From a virus (taxonomy: Duplodnaviria; Heunggongvirae; Uroviricota; Caudoviricetes), in IMG/VR virus record IMGVR_UViG_2526164634_000024, positions 1 to 12,834 of that record: a stretch of DNA of 12,834 nucleotides; one strand, given 5' to 3'. Within the stretch, counting starts at the first letter, position 1, and each line of letters begins with the position of its first letter. Of this stretch, positions 1 through 12,834 are shown piece by piece. Below the pieces are notes generated by a model. That model did no database searches. It was not told where the DNA came from and was given only the letters and a program-made list of their open reading frames with translations. Made by a program: the position numbers and the translations under genes.

Positions 1-960
1 TTACTCCTTGTCCATTGCGTACAGCCCATTAACCAGAGCAAATTGTGGCACCCCGTCCGCGATGAAAGTCGCATTAACTCCGCAGGCTTCGCGGATAGCG
101 GGTGCCACAATCTCCGCCCCGCCACCGACAACCATCACCCGCCCGTAACCCGAAAAACCCGCCAGCGCGCGGATCACGCGTTGTTTCAGTGTTTCTTCCT
201 TTTCACGAATAACCGCCATCAGGCTGGCGTAATGCGCGTCATTGTGGATGTGCTGGCGCAGCCAGGCTTCATCATGGCGATGTTCGATAATGGTATTGGC
301 GATGTGGTGACTGGTGCGCATACCGTTAGTGGCCATCACCGACAGTACGGCATCGGCCATAAGAGAAACGCCTACGTGTGGATCGCAAAACACCTGGCTG
401 ATACCTGCCAGTTGCCCCTGAACCTTTGCCACATCCAGCGTGGTTCCGCCCAAATCCACAATCAGCAGGGATTCAAACGGACTCATGTCAGCCAGTGCTT
501 TAAAGCCAGCCGGAATGGATTCAGGCATAACCCGTACGTTACGGATAGTGAATGCTTCGCCGTTCTGGTACTCCACCGGGCGCATAACGTTCGCTTTTTT
601 GCGGTTGATGTTGGCCATGTCCGGCTGTGCGTTTGTGTCGAAATACTCGCTCAGTGGCAGGGTAACAACCACATCCACTTCCTGTGGCGTGATGTCTGAT
701 TTGACCAGCGCGTGATGAATGGCAATGACATTCACATCGCTGTACTGGTATTGCGTGTCGGTCGTCTGGACAAAGCGATCGCTGACCGGATCAAAACCAT
801 AGCGCACGCCATCAAGCATGTAGTTAGCAGGCTGCGAGCCACCGAACGGCGCAGACCATTCCGACTTGAAGCTGTTCGGGCTGATGGCGTTGCGGCGTTC
901 GCCGTTCTCAGTCCATGCCAGCTTGATGTTGGTGGAGCCGTCGTCGATGTAAATTTTCAT
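1..960 (-). CDS. ParM/StbA-family actin-like ATPase (plasmid-segregation type), complete, 319 aa
   Basis: ORF from ATG at 960 to TAA at 1-3; AAGGA Shine-Dalgarno 8 nt upstream. N-terminus MKIYIDDGSTNIKLAW plus PNSFK, YSDVNV..HHAL, VMPESIPAG, LIVDLGGTTLD and VVGGGAE blocks match actin-fold nucleotide-binding motifs as I recall them from R1/R100 ParM (StbA); size matches ParM (~320 aa). Confidence 0.8.
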   Translation of the reverse strand: MKIYIDDGSTNIKLAWTENGERRNAISPNSFKSEWSAPFGGSQPANYMLDGVRYGFDPVSDRFVQTTDTQYQYSDVNVIAIHHALVKSDITPQEVDVVVTLPLSEYFDTNAQPDMANINRKKANVMRPVEYQNGEAFTIRNVRVMPESIPAGFKALADMSPFESLLIVDLGGTTLDVAKVQGQLAGISQVFCDPHVGVSLMADAVLSVMATNGMRTSHHIANTIIEHRHDEAWLRQHIHNDAHYASLMAVIREKEETLKQRVIRALAGFSGYGRVMVVGGGAEIVAPAIREACGVNATFIADGVPQFALVNGLYAMDKE

Positions 961-991: not shown

Positions 992-1103
992 TTTACGGGA
1001 TTCTGAAATCCCGTTTTTGCCTGTTTTGTGCGCGCCTCATATATCGCTGCGCGTTTTTTGCTCATTTACGGGATTCGTGAGTCCCGTTTCTGTCTGTTTT
1101 TTG
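992..1103. repeat. Two imperfect ~39-bp direct repeats (992-1030 and 1065-1103, period 73 bp), each containing a short palindrome (CGGGATT-n4-AATCCCG; ACGGGA-n8-TCCCGT) followed by a T-rich tract
   Basis: Read directly: TTTACGGGATTCTGAAATCCCGTTTTTGCCTGTTTTGTG versus TTTACGGGATTCGTGAGTCCCGTTTCTGTCTGTTTTTTG (~33/39 identical). Copy 1 is intergenic between the replication gene stop and the ParM-like start; copy 2 lies in the last ~20 codons of the replication gene. Confidence 0.6.
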
Positions 1104-3877
1104 TTTCCACTGGTCAGGCCACCCCGCAGCAGGTCTGCTTTGCGGCTGGCGCGTTCAGTGGTTTCACTGATTCTCTGTGCGTGCTCTGCGTCGCGGATGG
1201 CGCGCAGCATGTCAGAAAGCACGGTAACGGGTGTTTTCATGGTGTTCTGGTCCTGCTGAAGTGTGGATGCCAGGCGTGCGGCGGCTTCAGGGTCTGATGC
1301 CCCCAGCTGTGCCAGATAGCTGGCGACCGGGTTATGGCGGATCTCCGTGCTGCTTACGCCATGATTACGGCTCAGACGCTGCCAGAGCTGCGTGATTCGG
1401 CTGTCCGGGCGGGTATCCGGTTTGCGTACAATTTCAAATCCCTGCGGTGCAATGATGCTGCCGTCAACGTACAGACTGCCGCCCCGTAACAGGTGCTGCA
1501 TCTGTTGTTCACCGATATGCAGGCCGAGAGATTCAGCAGACTCCCGCCATTCTTTAGCGAGTAACTCGTGGTTATCAGGCAAAGGCCGCTGCTGTTTGCG
1601 GCTCTGTGTCCAGTTCTGCATTTCATCGCTGCTGTTTTTTGCCTGTTTGTCACGAAGCGAACGCATCAGCGCCCGGCGTTCGTGCCGTTTCAGTGAGCGC
1701 ATCCATTCATTTACTTCAACGCCGTCAGGAAGCTGCGGCCACGGTGCTGGCCGTTCTTCCGGCTGTTCTGTCCCGTTGTTGCCTGTTTCCTGTACACGGG
1801 GACAGTTATTGCCACGAGTCCAAGGGGCGGCAGGGCCGCCCTGAAGGTCAAAACCATTTTCGCGGGCGCTGTCTTCCGCTTCCGGTTTACGTCTTACCAG
1901 CTTCCAGTTATCCGGATGTGTGCACACACGGGAAGACTCCCCGATGAGTGGTGACCAGATCCCGTAAATCTGTACGCTCTGTTCGCCGTAATCGTTCAGC
2001 TCATCTGCGAGGTCGTAGGCGGTGCGAATCAGGTAGTCTTTGCGTGGAACAAGTACGCCGCCCTGTTTTTCAATGTAGGAGGCAAAACACCCGGCATCAG
2101 CGGCAGCGAGCACTGCATCCATTGCGTCATCCTTCAGCCGTTGCGGGCCTTCCGGGTTGCGTGCCATCTGGCTGGCAAGGCGGCGCAGTTCACGCCACAC
2201 CTGACGGGAGGGGATGCCAAAGAACTGGAACTGGCGGACCCGGTGAAGGCGCGCCCAGCCGATGGCGCGCTCCACGCTCTCGGCCATTGATTTTCCGGTT
2301 TCGTGGTCAACGCGTGGCTTGCCCGTTTTCGGGTCGATACCATCCACGGCGCGGCTGTCCAGGTTCTTTCCGATGTAGGTGGCGATGTAGCTGGTCGGTG
2401 TGCCTTTTGAGCCGTCGACGTACTCTGCCTTAAAGCGTGGGGTAATATCATCACCCAGCTCGTGACGATCTTCCTGAATGGCAATATCGCGGGTGTGGGA
2501 CACAATGGTGTCGATTTCTTCCGGATGAGCAAAGACCATCATATGCCAGTGCACGGTGCCGTCATGGTGAGGCTCCACCGTGCGGATGCCATACCAGCGC
2601 AGGCCGTCGCGGTTCAGTTTCTTGCGGACCGCCGCAAAAAACGAGTTAACCAGGTAATCGCTGGAGTCGCGCATAGTGGCCCCGTTCCATTTGGGATTCG
2701 GATGACCGTTCTCCGTTGTTGCGTGGTATTTTGACGGGCAGGTGACAGTCAGAAACACCGCTCTGTCGCCACGGGCTTCGGCCAGAAGTTCCAGCCCCTT
2801 CATGGTGGCCATCATTTCTGCCTTACGGTGAACCGGGTTACTTACTCCCGCGTAATACACTGTCTCAAGATCAATCGTGAACCCGTCTTCGTTTTCCAGC
2901 ATGAAACTTTTCAGGAAATCGCGTGTTTTCTCGCGCTGTGCGCGAAACTCGCTTAACGCATCCTGGCTCAGATAGGGCGATGTTTTTCTGGAAACCAGAC
3001 AGGCGGCGCGGAGTTGTTCTTCTCTCCACTCGCAACGTAACAGCCACAGTTTGCGTTTCCACCATTCCGCACAGGTCAGGCGAAGGATTGCGCCCGGCAG
3101 CAGCTCCGTGTCTGGTTCGTTCCTCCGGCCTTTGTCTGTTGTCAGTGCGTCATAATGCGGAGGCATGGCGTGCAGGTGTAACGCCATGCGGGCCAGCATC
3201 TGATACGCCTTCAGCGTTACATCCATGGTCAGCTCGCCATCAGTCGCACCAAAGCCATCGCAGAGTTTTTCGAAGGTGCTGCTGAACATCGCCGCCGTCA
3301 TGGTGGCCAGCGTCTGTATCTGGTGTTTGTTGAGCTGCGGCAGGTAAAGCAAATCGTCCAGGCGTTCGCGTCCGGCAAGGGAGCGATAACCCGGTGTCAG
3401 CCAGTGTCCGTCAGTGCGATCCAGACGTTCGAATATTTTGCGCAGGGTTCCGCGTGCATAGCGTTCTGCCTGCCAGCTCTTTTTGCCTTTCCGGCGATCG
3501 ACTTCCTGTTTTTTGCGCAGGAAAGAGAGGTGGCGGCTCAGAGGTTCACGCAGATAAACGGGAAGCACCTTCAGTGTGGCAAAAGCACGGGCCACCGGGT
3601 CTTGTTCTGTTGCCTGACGCTTGCTGATGATGCTTTGTGCCAGCTTTTCACGCTGTCCGGCTTCCTCAAGGGATGCCATGAGTTTTTTACCCACGGTGGA
3701 TTGTGCGAAAAAGGCTTCCTCCTTCGCTTCCTGTTCTTCCAGAGCCTTTTTGTCTGCCTCAAGGTAGTAACGGATGGCGCGTTGCAGGTCGGTTTCAGTT
3801 TCCTGCCTGTGCTCCGTAAATCTGGCCGGATCAATGGCTGGCCGTGGTTCATTCCAGCTCCATGCAAACTCATTCAT
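1037..3877 (-). CDS. Phage P2 gpA-family rolling-circle replication initiator (HUH endonuclease), ~946 aa
   Basis: Contains VEPHHDGTVHWHMMVF (HUH-type motif, cf. P2 A VEPHHDGTPHWHMMLF as recalled) and SYIATYIGKNLD (cf. P2 A GYIAKYISKNID). Preferred start is ATG at 3877 (MNEFAWSW...), overlapping the upstream ORF stop as ATGA; the ORF-track start at 3904 is a GTG. Stop TGA at 1037-1039. Confidence 0.85.
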   Translation of the reverse strand: MNEFAWSWNEPRPAIDPARFTEHRQETETDLQRAIRYYLEADKKALEEQEAKEEAFFAQSTVGKKLMASLEEAGQREKLAQSIISKRQATEQDPVARAFATLKVLPVYLREPLSRHLSFLRKKQEVDRRKGKKSWQAERYARGTLRKIFERLDRTDGHWLTPGYRSLAGRERLDDLLYLPQLNKHQIQTLATMTAAMFSSTFEKLCDGFGATDGELTMDVTLKAYQMLARMALHLHAMPPHYDALTTDKGRRNEPDTELLPGAILRLTCAEWWKRKLWLLRCEWREEQLRAACLVSRKTSPYLSQDALSEFRAQREKTRDFLKSFMLENEDGFTIDLETVYYAGVSNPVHRKAEMMATMKGLELLAEARGDRAVFLTVTCPSKYHATTENGHPNPKWNGATMRDSSDYLVNSFFAAVRKKLNRDGLRWYGIRTVEPHHDGTVHWHMMVFAHPEEIDTIVSHTRDIAIQEDRHELGDDITPRFKAEYVDGSKGTPTSYIATYIGKNLDSRAVDGIDPKTGKPRVDHETGKSMAESVERAIGWARLHRVRQFQFFGIPSRQVWRELRRLASQMARNPEGPQRLKDDAMDAVLAAADAGCFASYIEKQGGVLVPRKDYLIRTAYDLADELNDYGEQSVQIYGIWSPLIGESSRVCTHPDNWKLVRRKPEAEDSARENGFDLQGGPAAPWTRGNNCPRVQETGNNGTEQPEERPAPWPQLPDGVEVNEWMRSLKRHERRALMRSLRDKQAKNSSDEMQNWTQSRKQQRPLPDNHELLAKEWRESAESLGLHIGEQQMQHLLRGGSLYVDGSIIAPQGFEIVRKPDTRPDSRITQLWQRLSRNHGVSSTEIRHNPVASYLAQLGASDPEAAARLASTLQQDQNTMKTPVTVLSDMLRAIRDAEHAQRISETTERASRKADLLRGGLTSGNKKQTETGLTNPVNEQKTRSDI

Positions 3878-4263
3878 GGCTGGTATCCCGTCACGCGCTG
3901 CCACTCCTGCGAGAAGAGGGCAGAAAGGCGGTTAAATTCAGCGGTGTATTCACTCAGCGAGGCACACCCGCCAGCAGTGCGATGCGCCAGCATTGCCGCA
4001 AATACGGAGGCCGGGGAGTCGTAATACGCCAGCAGTGATTCTCCGTGTGGTGTCAGGCAGTGCAACGCCAGCCCGTGTGGTGTGAAGTCCACGCGGTAGC
4101 AGTCGTCTACTGTGAAATAAAGGGTGTCTGCATTCTCCGGTTTTGTGGTGCGTGCTCTGTTGTCACGACCACGGATGTAGAGATCAAATAATCCCTGAAG
4201 AACGGGAGCCAGACGGGTGTCCTGTGTGCGCACCCATCTTGTGAAGTCATGAGCGTCAATCAT
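3874..4263 (-). CDS. Hypothetical protein, 129 aa, translationally coupled to the replication initiator
   Basis: ATG at 4263, stop at 3874-3876 overlapping the Rep start (ATGA); same strand and context as the early operon. No family recognised. Confidence 0.55.
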   Translation of the reverse strand: MIDAHDFTRWVRTQDTRLAPVLQGLFDLYIRGRDNRARTTKPENADTLYFTVDDCYRVDFTPHGLALHCLTPHGESLLAYYDSPASVFAAMLAHRTAGGCASLSEYTAEFNRLSALFSQEWQRVTGYQP

Positions 4264-4335: not shown

Positions 4336-4566
4336 TTAATGGAGTTTGTTTTGCTGCTGGAAGAGTTGTTGCAGCTCGCGCAGATCATCCGCCAGATAGC
4401 TGAAAACAGAGGCGGAATAGATGTTCGATAGCGCGTGGCTGCGCTCATGCAGCATATTGATGTGCATGATTTGCGCGACGCGTGATGCGCGGAAAAGTCT
4501 ACGGTTGATTTCAGTCTGGATGTGACGACGCGCAGCGTATGCGCGCTGTTGTTTGCGGTTTGCCAT
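4336..4566 (-). CDS. Hypothetical small basic protein, 76 aa
   Basis: ATG at 4566 preceded by AAGAGG Shine-Dalgarno at 7-nt spacing; R/K-rich N-terminus. No family recognised. Confidence 0.55.
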   Translation of the reverse strand: MANRKQQRAYAARRHIQTEINRRLFRASRVAQIMHINMLHERSHALSNIYSASVFSYLADDLRELQQLFQQQNKLH

Positions 4567-4745
4567 GGTGTGGCCTCTTTGCTCGGTGATAGAAATAGCT
4601 CACCATCCAGAGTTGAGAATCTCGGGGTGGCGAGACGTACAGGGTTCTCAACACCGGAGAGCAAAGAATCCGGCCCGACCGAAGTCGGCCCCGTACGCCC
4701 CGCCATAATTCTGACGCGAAAAAGACGTGGCAATACAGTACGCAC

Positions 4746-4766
4746 AAAAAAACCGCTGGCGCGGTT
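4746..4766 (-). terminator. Candidate intrinsic terminator on the minus strand (6-bp GC stem AACCGC/GCGGTT, 4-nt loop, followed by a 7-U run)
   Basis: Plus-strand sequence AAAAAAACCGCTGGCGCGGTT reads on the minus strand as hairpin followed by TTTTTTT. The stem is short, so this is tentative. Confidence 0.35.
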
Positions 4767-4838
4767 ATGCGCTTTGCTCTGTATCGGGTTGAGAATCCCG
4801 GCACCCGTTTTATGAGGTGCAGCGGAAATGTAACCTGA

Positions 4839-4867
4839 CCGATTGCGGCATGGCAAGCGGTTTTTTT
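4839..4867 (+). terminator. Candidate intrinsic terminator on the plus strand (8-bp stem with one mismatch, 6-nt loop, 7-T run)
   Basis: CCGATTGC-GGCATG-GCAAGCGG-TTTTTTT read directly. No credible plus-strand protein gene lies upstream, which suggests a plus-strand non-coding or antisense transcript. Confidence 0.35.
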
Positions 4868-4888
4868 GTGTGTGCATGTTCTGGTTTC

Positions 4889-5674: not shown

Positions 5675-6091
5675 CTATGCGTTAAATACGGCACGTTGCG
5701 CGTCATCAATGAATACAGCTTGAGAGCGTTCTATCAGGCGGAGATTTGTCAGAAGCTCAGACTCTTTTGTGTGGTAAGGCGTTATCAGGTATTTGCCGTG
5801 CAGTTCGGCAATAATGGTGTATTGCGGCATCATTGCTGAACCAAGAATATAAATGCAGCGTCCAATGCTGGACGGATTCATGGCTGCAACTGTTGACTGT
5901 GTTTTAAGAGTGTCGATTTCTTTGCTCTGTTCCTCAATAATTTTGGCTGCGTCAGCGGTGATTTTTGCAATGGTCAGTGCGTGAAGTGCTGCCATATGTT
6001 GGCTACGCTTCACGGCATCTTTAGCCGTTTCATCTTCCGCTTCTGATATTTTTTTTAATGTGTTGATAATGCCTTCTTCTTTTGTGTTCAT
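5675..6091 (-). CDS. Hypothetical protein, 138 aa (N-terminal coiled-coil-like)
   Basis: ATG at 6091 preceded by GGAGA Shine-Dalgarno at ~6 nt; no family recognised. Confidence 0.55.
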   Translation of the reverse strand: MNTKEEGIINTLKKISEAEDETAKDAVKRSQHMAALHALTIAKITADAAKIIEEQSKEIDTLKTQSTVAAMNPSSIGRCIYILGSAMMPQYTIIAELHGKYLITPYHTKESELLTNLRLIERSQAVFIDDAQRAVFNA

Positions 6092-7468: not shown

Positions 7469-7563
7469 GATGTGATAACCTATTCAATCTGGTGCTATTT
7501 GTGGCTTTTTGTGGCGTCAAGTGGTACTCAACTGATAACCAATATAGTATTCAGGTGCACACC
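7469..7563. promoter_or_regulatory. Divergent control region between the Cox-like and C-type repressor genes; contains direct repeats TTTGTGGC x2 (7498-7505, 7508-7515) and TGATAACC x2 (7471-7478, 7534-7541)
   Basis: Repeats read directly. P2 C repressor is known to recognise direct rather than inverted repeats at the early promoter. Promoter hexamers here are not confidently assignable by eye. Confidence 0.5.
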
Positions 7564-7875
7564 ATGTCAATAGAGATATCAAAGAAGCTAAAAGCAATTC
7601 GAGAATCTGAGGGACTTAGCCAGGCAAAGTTCGCGGATTCAATAGGTATTGCGGTTGGTACAGTTAAGCAATATGAGACTGGTATTAGAGGTGTGGGGAC
7701 GGAGGTTTTACTGAAAATCACAATGCATCCGAACTTTAAAAAATACACCACGTGGTTGATGAGTAACGAAACAAATGAGGCTGCTGGGCAGATCAGTCCG
7801 TCTCTCTCCCCTGATGGGCCAAAAAGCACATCGCCTTCTCAAAAACCCCGCAAGACTGGCACACAGCCCGGCTAA
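7564..7875 (+). CDS. P2 C-type immunity repressor (XRE-like HTH), 103 aa
   Basis: Start at internal ATG 7564 (MSIEISKK...) with AGGTG Shine-Dalgarno at 7 nt. HTH region LSQAKFADSIGIAVGTVKQYETG and C-terminal ...PNFKKYTTWLMSNE...AAGQISP resemble P2 C (..PQFTKYTLWFMTNQ...SGQIAP) as recalled. Located directly upstream of int, as in P2. Confidence 0.8.
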   Translation: MSIEISKKLKAIRESEGLSQAKFADSIGIAVGTVKQYETGIRGVGTEVLLKITMHPNFKKYTTWLMSNETNEAAGQISPSLSPDGPKSTSPSQKPRKTGTQPG

Positions 7876-7924
7876 TCATGGAGCGCTGGGGGCATGGTGG
7901 TCTTGTAACGCTGGGGTTTCACGA

Positions 7925-8902
7925 ATGAGCATAAAATCAATTCCGGGAGGGTATCTTCTTGACATGCGCCCGGAGGGGCGTAAAGGCAAACGCATTCGCA
8001 AAAAATTTAAAACGAAATCGGATGCAGTTTTATATGAGCGGTGGGTGCTGGCGCAACAGCATAACAATGAGTGGAAAGGAAACTCCATTGATCGCCGTCC
8101 GCTGTCAGTGCTTATTGACTTGTGGTGGAAATACCACGGCCAGCTAATGAAGTCAGGGCATAACACGCGCCTTAAATTGCTGCGCTTGAGTGAGGCAATG
8201 GATGACCCGTGCGTGCATAAACTTAATACAACGATGCTCACCGAGCTACGTGTGTCCAGGATAGAGCAGGGGATACAGCCCAGCACCATAAATCGAGAGA
8301 TTGGGGCGTTAAGCGCGATGTTTACCGCACTCATCTCATCCGGCCATTTTCTTAACGATAACCCCGTTCAAGGCCTTAAAGGAATGAAGGTTAACGAGCG
8401 CGAAATGGGATATCTGAGTAAGTCTGAATGTGTTCAGTTGCTGGATGCACTGGCTGAAAATCCCGATGAACGACTGGCTGTCGAAATCCTTCTGTCGACC
8501 GGGGCGCGATGGGGCGAGGTAGCGGCACTGGAGCAGCGCCGTGTTCTTCATTGTCGAATCACTTTTTCAAAAACGAAGAACAGCAAAAACCGTACCGTTC
8601 CTATTTCTGAAAGCCTGTTTGAAAAGATCAAAAAACGGGGCGGGAAACTGGTGTTTCCGACGCTGGATTATTCATTGGTTCGCGATGTCATCAAAACGGT
8701 CGCACCTGATGTTCCTGACGGCCAGGCTGTTCATGCGCTGCGCCACACCTTCGCCAGTCATTTCATGATGAACGGCGGCAATATTCTGACGCTCCAGAAA
8801 ATTCTGGGGCACGCAAAGATTCAGACAACGATGATTTATGCCCATCTTGCGCCGGATTACCTGCAGGATGCGGTGAGGTTTAATCCACTAGGAGGTGCTT
8901 AA
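7925..8902 (+). CDS. int: Tyrosine integrase, P2 Int-like, 325 aa
   Basis: Start at ATG 7925 (MSIKSIPGGY...). Conserved catalytic-region motifs LSTGARWGE, HALRHTFASHF and MIYAHLAPDY (catalytic Tyr); strong overall resemblance to P2 Int as recalled (GKRIRKKF, TGARWGE, PISE, NGG.I.TLQ.ILGH). Confidence 0.9.
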   Translation: MSIKSIPGGYLLDMRPEGRKGKRIRKKFKTKSDAVLYERWVLAQQHNNEWKGNSIDRRPLSVLIDLWWKYHGQLMKSGHNTRLKLLRLSEAMDDPCVHKLNTTMLTELRVSRIEQGIQPSTINREIGALSAMFTALISSGHFLNDNPVQGLKGMKVNEREMGYLSKSECVQLLDALAENPDERLAVEILLSTGARWGEVAALEQRRVLHCRITFSKTKNSKNRTVPISESLFEKIKKRGGKLVFPTLDYSLVRDVIKTVAPDVPDGQAVHALRHTFASHFMMNGGNILTLQKILGHAKIQTTMIYAHLAPDYLQDAVRFNPLGGA

Positions 8903-8904
8903 GA

Positions 8905-9267
8905 GTGAAGTTTCATTTAGATGAACTTAAAAGAATGGCAACGCTCGATAATTTTGCGCGTTTTCTCAATGAGTCGTCTACGAATGAAAAATGTTTGTCG
9001 TGTGGCGATACGGATATGTACATGTATTTGACGAATATTGTTGAGGTGGGGCCTGAGCCGAAAACTGCTGAGGAGTGTGATTTAGGCACTTTTGTTATGC
9101 TTGATTACATCGGTCCATTTACTGGGTATCCGGGATATGAGGGACATGATCGGGAAAATATCCATAACTATGAATTCCGACTTACCTGTAACAGATGTGG
9201 GTTTGTTCATCGTTACTCGGCCCGGGCCTTTATGAACTGGGTAGGCAAGCAGGGTGATGAGAAGTGA
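8905..9267 (+). CDS. Hypothetical Cys-rich (putative Zn-ribbon) protein, 120 aa
   Basis: GTG start at 8905, 2 nt after the int stop, with GGAGG Shine-Dalgarno 9 nt upstream (inside the int 3' end). Two CxxC pairs (CLSCG near residue 30, CNRCG near residue 100). Visibly AT-richer than the flanking int. No family recognised. Confidence 0.55.
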   Translation: MKFHLDELKRMATLDNFARFLNESSTNEKCLSCGDTDMYMYLTNIVEVGPEPKTAEECDLGTFVMLDYIGPFTGYPGYEGHDRENIHNYEFRLTCNRCGFVHRYSARAFMNWVGKQGDEK

Positions 9268-9704
9268 TGGCAGAGAATGTTGCACATATTTCGCGGTTCA
9301 GAAAAAAGAAAGAGAATGCCTATAATGTATCCAACAACCAAGTAACAGGAAGTGGTAATGATGGAGGTGATGGCATGAATGACGACCTTGAACGGCGGGT
9401 CAGTTGCCTGGAAAGTGATGTGACTGAAATCAAAAACAACCTGATTACTCTCACCACAAGAAGCGAATCCTTTGCTACCAAATCTGATGTACTGGAGATT
9501 CGCGAAGGGTTGAGGCTTGAGATGGCAGAATCGCGCCAATCCCTGAAGTCTGAGATGGCTGATTTACGCCAGTCTCTGAAAGTTGAGATGGCTGAGCATC
9601 GTACTGAACTTCAGAAATCATTTGCAAATCAGACTTGGTTACTCACAGGTATTGTCCTGTCTGCGATGGCCGTGCTTGTGGCTGTGGTTACTGTTATTAA
9701 GTAA
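9267..9704 (+). CDS. Hypothetical coiled-coil protein with C-terminal transmembrane anchor, ~145 aa (alternative start at 9375 giving ~109 aa)
   Basis: Start overlaps the upstream stop (GTGATGA). Internal ATG at 9375 has a perfect GGAGG at 7-nt spacing. Three tandem 11-residue repeats (EMAESRQSLKS / EMADLRQSLKV / EMAEHRTELQK) and hydrophobic C-terminus LLTGIVLSAMAVLVAVVTVIK. Confidence 0.55.
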   Translation: MAENVAHISRFRKKKENAYNVSNNQVTGSGNDGGDGMNDDLERRVSCLESDVTEIKNNLITLTTRSESFATKSDVLEIREGLRLEMAESRQSLKSEMADLRQSLKVEMAEHRTELQKSFANQTWLLTGIVLSAMAVLVAVVTVIK

Positions 9705-9829
9705 ATTTATGGCGGCGATATGATCCACAAAGTGACCACATCCCTGTTATTTGTTGTGGTTGGCTGTGTTTTTGTGTGTCTGTAAGTCTTTGATAATTAT
9801 CTAACTTGTTGATTTTTACTTGTGTTTAT

Positions 9830-9845
9830 GGCCGCTTGCGCGGCC
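9830..9845 (-). other. Perfect GC hairpin GGCCGC-TTGC-GCGGCC located 19 nt downstream of the acrB stop
   Basis: Read directly. No U-tract follows on the acrB strand, so it is not a canonical intrinsic terminator; it may be a 3' stabilising stem-loop or part of a recombination/junction region. Confidence 0.4.
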
Positions 9846-9864
9846 TTAGTGATTACACGTTGTA

Positions 9865-12834
<2,970 letters not shown>

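Follow-up and report, generated by a model that had tools for sequence, protein, structure and literature searches.

The island at positions 4567-4888 is very probably a P4-type RNA immunity and anti-repressor control module, lodged in the early operon of a P88/Sp13-like prophage of the P2 family. It lies in a stretch of viral DNA of 12,834 nt that was analysed as a whole (the window). This reading draws on membership in two RNA families, on covariation within stems and among three copies of each of two short boxes, on the overlap of one box with a ribosome-binding site (RBS), on the homology of the following gene to P4 epsilon, and on a conserved frame that reads through the entire island. 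Judged from these sequences, antisense action is by way of two short box pairs, a and b, carried by RNAs of the same strand, and not by convergent transcription.

The element belongs to the P88/Xuanwuvirus type, with an integrase, an HTH repressor (7492-7875), gpA and ParM among its genes. The order of the genes downstream of the island is also found in P88 and P884B11, and a 641-bp query containing the module is 100% identical to the chromosome of E. coli strain 300709. No tRNA or tmRNA was found in a search of the window, and defence-system and family scans of the neighbouring small ORFs returned nothing informative. SOS control through a LexA box was considered and rejected: none lies near the module, and the sole matches in the window, at 1790 and 7368, are below chance expectation.

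All of the sequence elements listed in the original prediction were recovered in place, and its suggestion of a small regulatory or antisense RNA in this interval is borne out by isrK and C4 matches above the Rfam cut-offs. Its proposal that a checkpoint separates the replication genes from the first early genes is likewise probable, by homology to P4. Its remark that the classical P2 early operon has no such checkpoint was right, since P2 and 186, when examined, lacked the module. What had been overlooked are a second triple repeat (CTTTGCTC) and a 205-codon ORF.

Two structured RNAs on the operon strand

Upstream in the module is an RNA of the IsrK family (Table 1), which folds into three hairpins (z -3.1). 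The third hairpin together with a run of seven U residues makes up a Rho-independent terminator (4766>4746); this is the minus-strand hairpin and U-run first noticed at 4746-4766, and it was called in our terminator scan as well. Compensatory changes are seen in 7 of the 16 isrK pairs among 17 distinct homologues. Within the predicted promoter, the -35 element TTGCCA (4856>4851) is separated by an 18-nt spacer from the -10 element TACATT (4832>4827), which would place the start at about 4820, the first base of isrK. Promoter-like -35 and -10 elements occur at the matching position upstream of isrK in 16 of 16 loci, P4 among them. In P4 we take this promoter to be PLE, of which P_isrK is presumably the counterpart. 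A second promoter-like site in the consensus scan (4733>4705), from which transcription would start inside the C4 stem, is doubtful. From a reading of the spacer sequences, the -35 of that site is not kept in lambdoid modules.

Table 1. Features of the module and its surroundings. Coordinates are those of the window; an arrow (>) gives the 5' to 3' direction on the minus strand.
Feature	Position	Strand	Basis or remark
gpA rolling-circle replication initiator, downstream, under the putative checkpoint	1037-3904	-	Pfam Phage_GPA, 434.8 bits
129-aa ORF, downstream, under the putative checkpoint	3874-4263	-	phrog_3237
eta/ORF199-like read-through ORF, 205 codons	4260-4877	-	covers isrK, C4 and the targets; continues out of frame (+1) over the epsilon-like gene
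76-aa homologue of P4 epsilon (helper-derepression/anti-repressor)	4336-4566	-	Pfam Derepression PF25738, 31.5 bits (cut-off 27)
Downstream target leader, seqC-like	4574-4625	-	carries b2 and a2
Box a2 GAGCAAAGA	4584>4576	-	overlaps Shine-Dalgarno AAGAGG (4579>4574), 7 nt before the ATG at 4566
Box b2 UUCUCAAC	4619>4612	-	directly 3' of C4
C4/P4-CI-type antisense RNA	4623-4710	-	Rfam RF01695 (clan CL00128), 78.5 bits (cut-off 45), model positions 1-87 of 87
Box b' GUUGAGAA	4652>4645	-	single-stranded C4 junction
Box a' UCUUUGCUCU	4667>4658	-	loop of C4 hairpin 2
IsrK/P4-seqA-type small RNA	4746-4820	-	Rfam RF01394, 62.8 bits (cut-off 50), model positions 1-77 of 77
Box a1 AGAGCAAAG	4780>4772	-	isrK linker
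Box b1 UUCUCAAC	4795>4788	-	loop of isrK hairpin 2
Predicted internal sigma-70-like promoter P_isrK	4827-4856	-	consensus scan
A7 run and imperfect hairpin overlapping the -35	4837-4873		the plus-strand 'terminator' of the original prediction

The C4 RNA has a 17-bp outer stem that ends in a tRNA-like ACC tail and encloses two hairpins. The first of these is the GC hairpin that had been pointed out at 4670-4693, which is real and is capped by a UUCG loop. The minimum free energy (MFE) structure of C4 is the Rfam consensus structure (-47.6 kcal/mol, z -4.9), and 13 of its 27 pairs show compensatory changes, with none broken, among 18 distinct sequences. Covariation across related prophages thus favours structured RNAs in the island, through compensatory stem changes in both C4 and isrK and through the three-way covariation of the boxes described below.

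The two RNAs also travel together. In all 15 relatives that we fetched, which comprise P88-like and lambdoid/Stx phages, ST64B, a Yersinia phage and P4, isrK is present and is followed by C4. Co-occurrence with isrK is also mentioned in the Rfam description of C4. The C4 model matches P4 at 8420-8507 and the isrK model at 8615-8692, both in the immunity region and with epsilon downstream in the same operon; the spacer between isrK and C4 is 35 nt here versus 107 nt in P4. We take these P4 matches to be the CI RNA and the seqA region, respectively.

These strand assignments bear directly on the arrangement first envisaged, in which convergent transcription units with facing terminators would yield transcripts overlapping by about 120 nt, or in which the island would be a simple attenuator. 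This account, which we regard as scarcely credible, has in its favour the minus-strand terminator at 4766-4746, a plus-strand hairpin followed by T7 at 4837-4867, and a 21-nt inverted repeat that joins the two hairpins. However, both covariance-model matches fall on the minus strand, where the RNA genes are co-oriented with the early operon and with all genes flanking the island, and no plus-strand promoter is predicted between 4200 and 5300. The plus-strand hairpin and U-run that had been placed at 4839-4867 do exist, but the stem is weak, interrupted and statistically unremarkable: taken alone it folds with a dG of -11.4 kcal/mol (z -0.35), and 61 of 200 shuffles fold equally well. It goes uncalled in the terminator scan, and its second (distal) arm is replaced in one relative, L025, so it was rejected as a plus-strand terminator. 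Because of the strand assignments, the weakness of this hairpin and the lack of a predicted plus-strand promoter in that interval, we reject the convergent arrangement; moreover, the repeats are accounted for by three-way a/b pairing in RNAs of the same strand.

Three-way pairing of the a and b boxes

The repeated GTTGAGAATC of the original prediction is one of two box sets, each of which is present in three copies. Its 10-nt direct repeat (4612-4621 and 4788-4797) is real and extends to 14 nt. A search for GTTGAGAA returned plus-strand copies at 4612-4619 and 4788-4795, an inverted copy at 4645-4652 and one further site that is unrelated. A count of four was reached in none of 200 shuffles. 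The second triple repeat, CTTTGCTC, is found at 4577-4584 and again at 4772-4780, and its complement lies at 4659-4667. In each set one copy thus belongs to IsrK, one to C4 and one to the leader of the epsilon-like gene (Table 1).

Strongly indicative of pairing is the manner in which the copies change together. The three box copies covary across 25 related loci, and three-way complementarity is found in every fetched locus, with box sequences that differ between loci. Between a C4 and its own targets the summed complementary run is 30.8 nt, but only 18.3 nt when the targets are taken from other loci (16 loci). A finer comparison was made with 10 gap-free sequences of the P88 group, which are about 90% identical elsewhere. 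For a'/a1 and b'/b1 taken together, 95.3% of cells are paired and the covariation score is 0.73; for a'/a2 and b'/b2 the corresponding values are 93.5% and 0.71. Shuffles gave 66% of cells paired and scores of 0.14-0.15 in both cases, none of 500 shuffles matched the observed covariation scores, and slid registers reached at most 0.23. In two relatives (L021 and L023) the a2 matches are imperfect.

The P88 group holds at least four b' and at least ten a' alleles; P88 itself carries b' GUGGAAA and a' CUGUAGUUG. Such a multiplicity of a/b alleles within one group is a signature of immunity specificities, and the specificity of immunity would be set by the sequences of the a and b boxes.

Folding calculations are consistent with this pairing. 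The MFE structure of the read-through RNA contains both the a'/a2 and the b'/b2 pairing in cis, and the local box duplexes have energies of -10.3 to -16.4 kcal/mol. When the whole C4 RNA was combined with IsrK or with the leader in RNAcofold, box pairing was not predicted, because loop-loop (kissing) contacts fall outside the model of that program. Local duplex energies and covariation were used in its place.

The gene that we propose to be controlled by the RNAs, on the evidence of its sequence and position, is the 76-aa epsilon-like gene. In addition to the Pfam match, its product shows 33% identity to P4 epsilon over 51 aa in a BLASTP comparison (E 4e-9), and a match to phrog_3688 covers its full length. 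A search for related loci with this protein returned three close relatives only.

From these features the following course of events can be proposed. Transcription from the internal promoter at about 4856-4827 on the minus strand would produce an IsrK RNA of about 75 nt, ended by its own terminator. Transcripts that read through would bring in C4, which, as with P1 c4 and P4 CI, may then be processed, possibly by RNase P, into a stable RNA that resembles tRNA; we infer this maturation because of what is known of P1 and P4, the tRNA-like stem and the ACC tail. Boxes a' and b' of C4 would then pair with a2 and b2 downstream, either in cis or in trans, hiding the RBS of the epsilon-like derepression gene and blocking its translation. 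The same pairing probably also exposes the RNA to premature, putatively Rho-dependent termination before gene A, as in P4, whose Rho-dependent terminator timm becomes effective through the RNA pairing. Since IsrK holds a1 and b1 as decoys, it could switch the anti-repressor on, either by competing for C4 or by opening the cis structure. Relief of a block by IsrK has been established experimentally for the IsrK/STnc1160/AnrP system of Gifsy-1 (PMC4825925).

The read-through frame and a possible antiterminator

The island had been described as having no convincing coding potential, which does not hold: a 205-codon ORF on the minus strand spans all of it. The end of this ORF overlaps the start of the next gene (4263) in an ATGA. 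In all 15 loci of the P88 group the frame is open over 202-208 codons and ends in ATGA, despite differing a/b alleles, and its ATG, 57-66 nt upstream of the isrK +1, precedes the internal promoter. Beyond this group, P4 and many lambdoid modules that are fed from upstream have the same frame (frame 1 relative to C4) open; in stand-alone modules it is closed.

One way to understand this frame is as an ordinary gene, whose 205-aa 'Ash family' or 'transcriptional regulator' product is functional and of which the RNA matches are by-products. Conservation of the open frame in 15 of 15 loci would fit, as would matches to PHROG 'transcriptional regulator' families (to E 9e-16), a weak Pfam Ash match and the annotation of a CDS in some database records. 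Residues 16-111 resemble Pfam Phage_ASH below its cut-off (19.3 versus 26), and P4 Eta and lambdoid homologues exceed that cut-off over the same RNA-coding stretch. However, in P4 Eta, in the lambdoid 'antirepressor' ORFs and here, the Phage_ASH domain is coextensive with isrK, C4 and the targets, as it is in every homologue. The NCBI annotation pipeline, for its part, often labels the frame an incomplete pseudogene, and in P4 the immunity factor of the region is an RNA, with eta acting through being translated (PMC10111431). Because substitutions follow RNA pairing in stems and boxes while the encoded residues change freely, and because a Rho-independent terminator lies inside the ORF, we reject a pure 'Ash' gene, an explanation that we consider very improbable. 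The 205-aa product resembles a low-quality protein.

In P4 the corresponding ORF is eta (ORF199), for which translation is possible only from the upstream late promoter and prevents immunity-specific termination (Forti et al. 1999, summarised in PMC10111431). By the same design, ribosomes on transcripts from the early promoter of the present element would traverse the module in the eta-like frame, in coupling with the next gene. It is rather unlikely, in our estimation, that the RNAs are real but that C4 is limited to translation of the epsilon-like gene in the style of P1/P7, with no termination checkpoint and with an eta-like frame owed to chance or ancestry. The overlap of a2 with the Shine-Dalgarno sequence would fit such control. 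In addition, when the amino-acid sequence of the epsilon-like protein is held fixed, its +1 frame is open in 28% of synonymous resamplings, which is not significant, and the extension of the eta-like frame through this gene is thus weakly significant on its own. The members of the P88 group are also close relatives, so that 15 of 15 does not amount to 15 independent observations. Against this account, mononucleotide shuffling leaves the whole 615-nt frame open in only 0.02% of cases, its ATG upstream of the promoter is kept behind four different upstream genes, the ATGA overlap is retained with two variants of the next gene, and the same design is functional in P4 (PMC10111431). We favour a module in which translational control is probably joined by a termination checkpoint, with the eta-like frame as a putative bypass.

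A further route around the switch may be encoded in the imperfect hairpin upstream of isrK. In RNA of the minus strand, the segment 4873>4853 shows 90% complementarity to 4760>4740, where the 3' half of the isrK terminator and its U-tract lie, the two segments forming the 21-nt inverted repeat already mentioned. In the MFE structure of 4880>4740 (-50.9 kcal/mol, z -4.4), a long-range helix displaces the isrK terminator. It is thus possible, on the basis of this model, that 4873>4853 is an antiterminator for transcripts started upstream. The segment does not vary within the group and hence offers no covariation, so the antiterminator is something that we infer. Through translation of the eta-like frame or through such an RNA antiterminator, the replication genes would be expressed in the lytic state regardless of the switch.

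Relation to known systems and biological implications

Both RNA families are curated in Rfam, and the mechanism is established in P1/P7, P4 and Gifsy-1, so that the module is of a known type. The closest comparison is offered by the immunity region of P4, which is ordered PLE - seqA - CI RNA/seqB - seqC - eta/kil - epsilon. Both Rfam models match P4 with order and strand unchanged, a promoter lies directly upstream, the three-copy box layout is shared, a read-through ORF starts upstream of the promoter, and an epsilon homologue lies downstream in the operon. Nevertheless, the module is carried here by a P2-family phage that replicates through gpA and has ParM, whereas P4 is a satellite, and the a/b alleles are not the same. 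There is no kil, and the first gene under control is the epsilon homologue, whose RBS lies under a2. This gene is also out of frame with the read-through ORF (frame 0 versus ORF frame 1), in contrast to P4 and the lambdoid modules, where the regulated gene is nested in frame.

In Gifsy-1 of Salmonella the order is isrK - orf45/STnc1160 - anrP (Hershko-Shalev et al. 2016, PMC4825925), and IsrK has been recognized as a structural homologue of P4 SeqA (PMC4825925). There too, a C4-class RNA follows isrK, and isrK is furnished with a promoter and a leaky terminator of its own, as is predicted for the present module. Other shared features are the complementarity of IsrK to downstream RNA and an anti-repressor-type gene downstream of a translationally silent read-through mRNA, the silencing being predicted in our case. 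The differences are that an orf45-type coupling ORF is lacking here and AntQ is not found nearby, that the anti-repressor is of the epsilon type rather than the AnrP/Rha type, and that the module lies within an operon that is entered by transcription from upstream, with an eta-like frame for bypass.

The immI region of P1/P7 (c4 - icd - ant) shares the C4 RNA family, the a1 b1 / a' b' / a2 b2 logic, the overlap of one target with an RBS, and allelic boxes that lead to heteroimmunity. In the present element, however, icd and ant are absent, the genes downstream being the epsilon-like gene, the phrog_3237 gene and gpA. The upstream boxes are packed in a terminated IsrK RNA and the regulated protein is epsilon-like. 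Co-occurrence of isrK and C4 has been recorded, for example in APSE phages (PMC7313666). Three aspects appear not to have been described in searchable papers: the presence of the module in a helper-type phage of the P2 family, the direct control of an epsilon homologue, and the nesting of an epsilon-like gene out of frame in an eta-like ORF.

The module is widespread. It was present in 1,122 of 5,426 complete E. coli genomes, about one fifth, when a genome was counted as a carrier if at least 80% of the module was found. Prophages of O157:H7 and O104:H4 strains are among the E. coli carriers, O157 genomes having the module at 96% identity, and it also occurs in Salmonella and E. albertii.

A possible role for the module is suggested by Sp13, a P2-like prophage of O157 Sakai that has a P4 epsilon-like gene and is inducible by mitomycin though its repressor is without a peptidase motif (PMC2669165). 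Asadulghani et al. suggested that the epsilon-like gene might account for this inducibility (PMC2669165). Tentatively, and as a possibility that we judge to be well short of even, IsrK-C4 could be the missing induction switch of P88/Sp13-like prophages, gating an epsilon-like anti-repressor that would inactivate the prophage's own repressor or that of a co-resident of the P2 type, which would explain SOS-independent or mitomycin inducibility. The anti-repressor gene would lie out of frame within an eta-like antitermination ORF, and a promoter-specific antiterminator at 4873>4853 would let early-promoter transcripts alone bypass the switch. Since the module occurs, in many a/b alleles, both in helper-type phages and in P4-like satellites, RNAs of satellite and helper could also cross-regulate one another.

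Although no new principle is revealed by this module, its recognition means that the database labels 'hypothetical', 'ash family protein' and 'transcriptional regulator' can be replaced by that of an RNA immunity and anti-repressor switch. It also offers a testable route to the induction of P2-family prophages that are not under SOS control. Finally, a single regulatory cassette that is common to a helper-type phage and to the satellite P4 bears on cross-talk between such elements and on the typing of heteroimmunity by a/b alleles.

Prophage end and neighbouring genes

Downstream of gpA lies a complete gene for ParM, an actin-like segregation ATPase, and the P88 annotation has a partition protein beside it; a plasmid-type partition function is carried within an integrase-bearing P2-family prophage. 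Next to the integrase, which marks the prophage end, come two functionally uncharacterised ORFs for which PADLOC returned no match, and after them a host transporter gene. The attachment site is expected at around 9700-9865.

Features of the window and of two relatives
Feature	Position	Strand	Remarks
ParM	1-960	-	complete
Phage_ASH/PHROG-matching stretch	4539-4841	-	P4 (L015) 8329-8704; lambdoid locus L005 1494-1785
Second promoter-like site	4705-4733	-	-35 TTGCCA, 17-nt spacer, -10 AATTAT
Extra a-box target copy	5919-5927	-	transcribed strand
Integrase	7775-8902	+	prophage end, 7775-12834
Two ORFs, function unknown	8905-9267, 9264-9704		PHROG matches only
AcrB/AcrD-family transporter	9865-12834	-	host gene

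Pairing boxes and the second promoter-like site

The b-box alleles of some loci are mirror images of one another. P88 carries GUGGAAA in C4 and UUUCCAC in the targets, whereas Stx2a_WGPS2, mEp460 and ST64B carry UUUCCAC in C4 and GUGGAAA in the targets; the window and P4 are likewise mirrored. Mirrored alleles of this kind could allow the C4 RNA of one phage to pair with that of the other.

Other modules have imperfect a boxes. In the E. coli 99-3165 prophage both a2 and a1 match a′ over 5-7 nt only, as does a2 in the RIVM_C039205 prophage, and in both modules b1 and b2 are perfect. These modules may be partly immunity-escaped ("vir"-like) or decaying. Within the window, the 9-nt a-box target GAGCAAAGA has an additional exact copy inside a 138-aa early ORF (5675-6091); the chance expectation for the whole window is about 0.05 copies (12,834 nt / 4^9). 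This copy has no b box next to it and could be a chance occurrence or a further C4 target.

The -10 element of the second promoter-like site is made up of bases 1-6 of the C4 model, and a transcript starting from this site would have a truncated C4 outer stem. By our reading of the spacer sequences, its -35 element is not conserved in lambdoid modules.

The Ash family and other matches in relatives

Two further Rfam matches lie near modules in relatives: sRNA-Xcc1 in phage P13374 (79.6 bits, L011 2523-2606), overlapping the annotated "antB2", and ryfA in Yersinia phage vB_YpM_39 (134.6 bits, L008 149-447). An epsilon-like gene 93% identical to that of the window occurs in a draft assembly of the Gram-positive Vagococcus sp. 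WN89Y, and is probably contaminating enterobacterial DNA.

In the window, in P4 Eta and in the lambdoid "antirepressor" ORFs, the Pfam Phage_ASH domain match has exactly the extent of the translated isrK-C4-target RNA stretch, and matches to several PHROG "transcriptional regulator" families are coextensive with it. NCBI's annotation pipeline frequently labels this stretch a pseudogene, as an incomplete "ash family protein". It is probably the RNA genes that impose the conservation seen in the Ash family.
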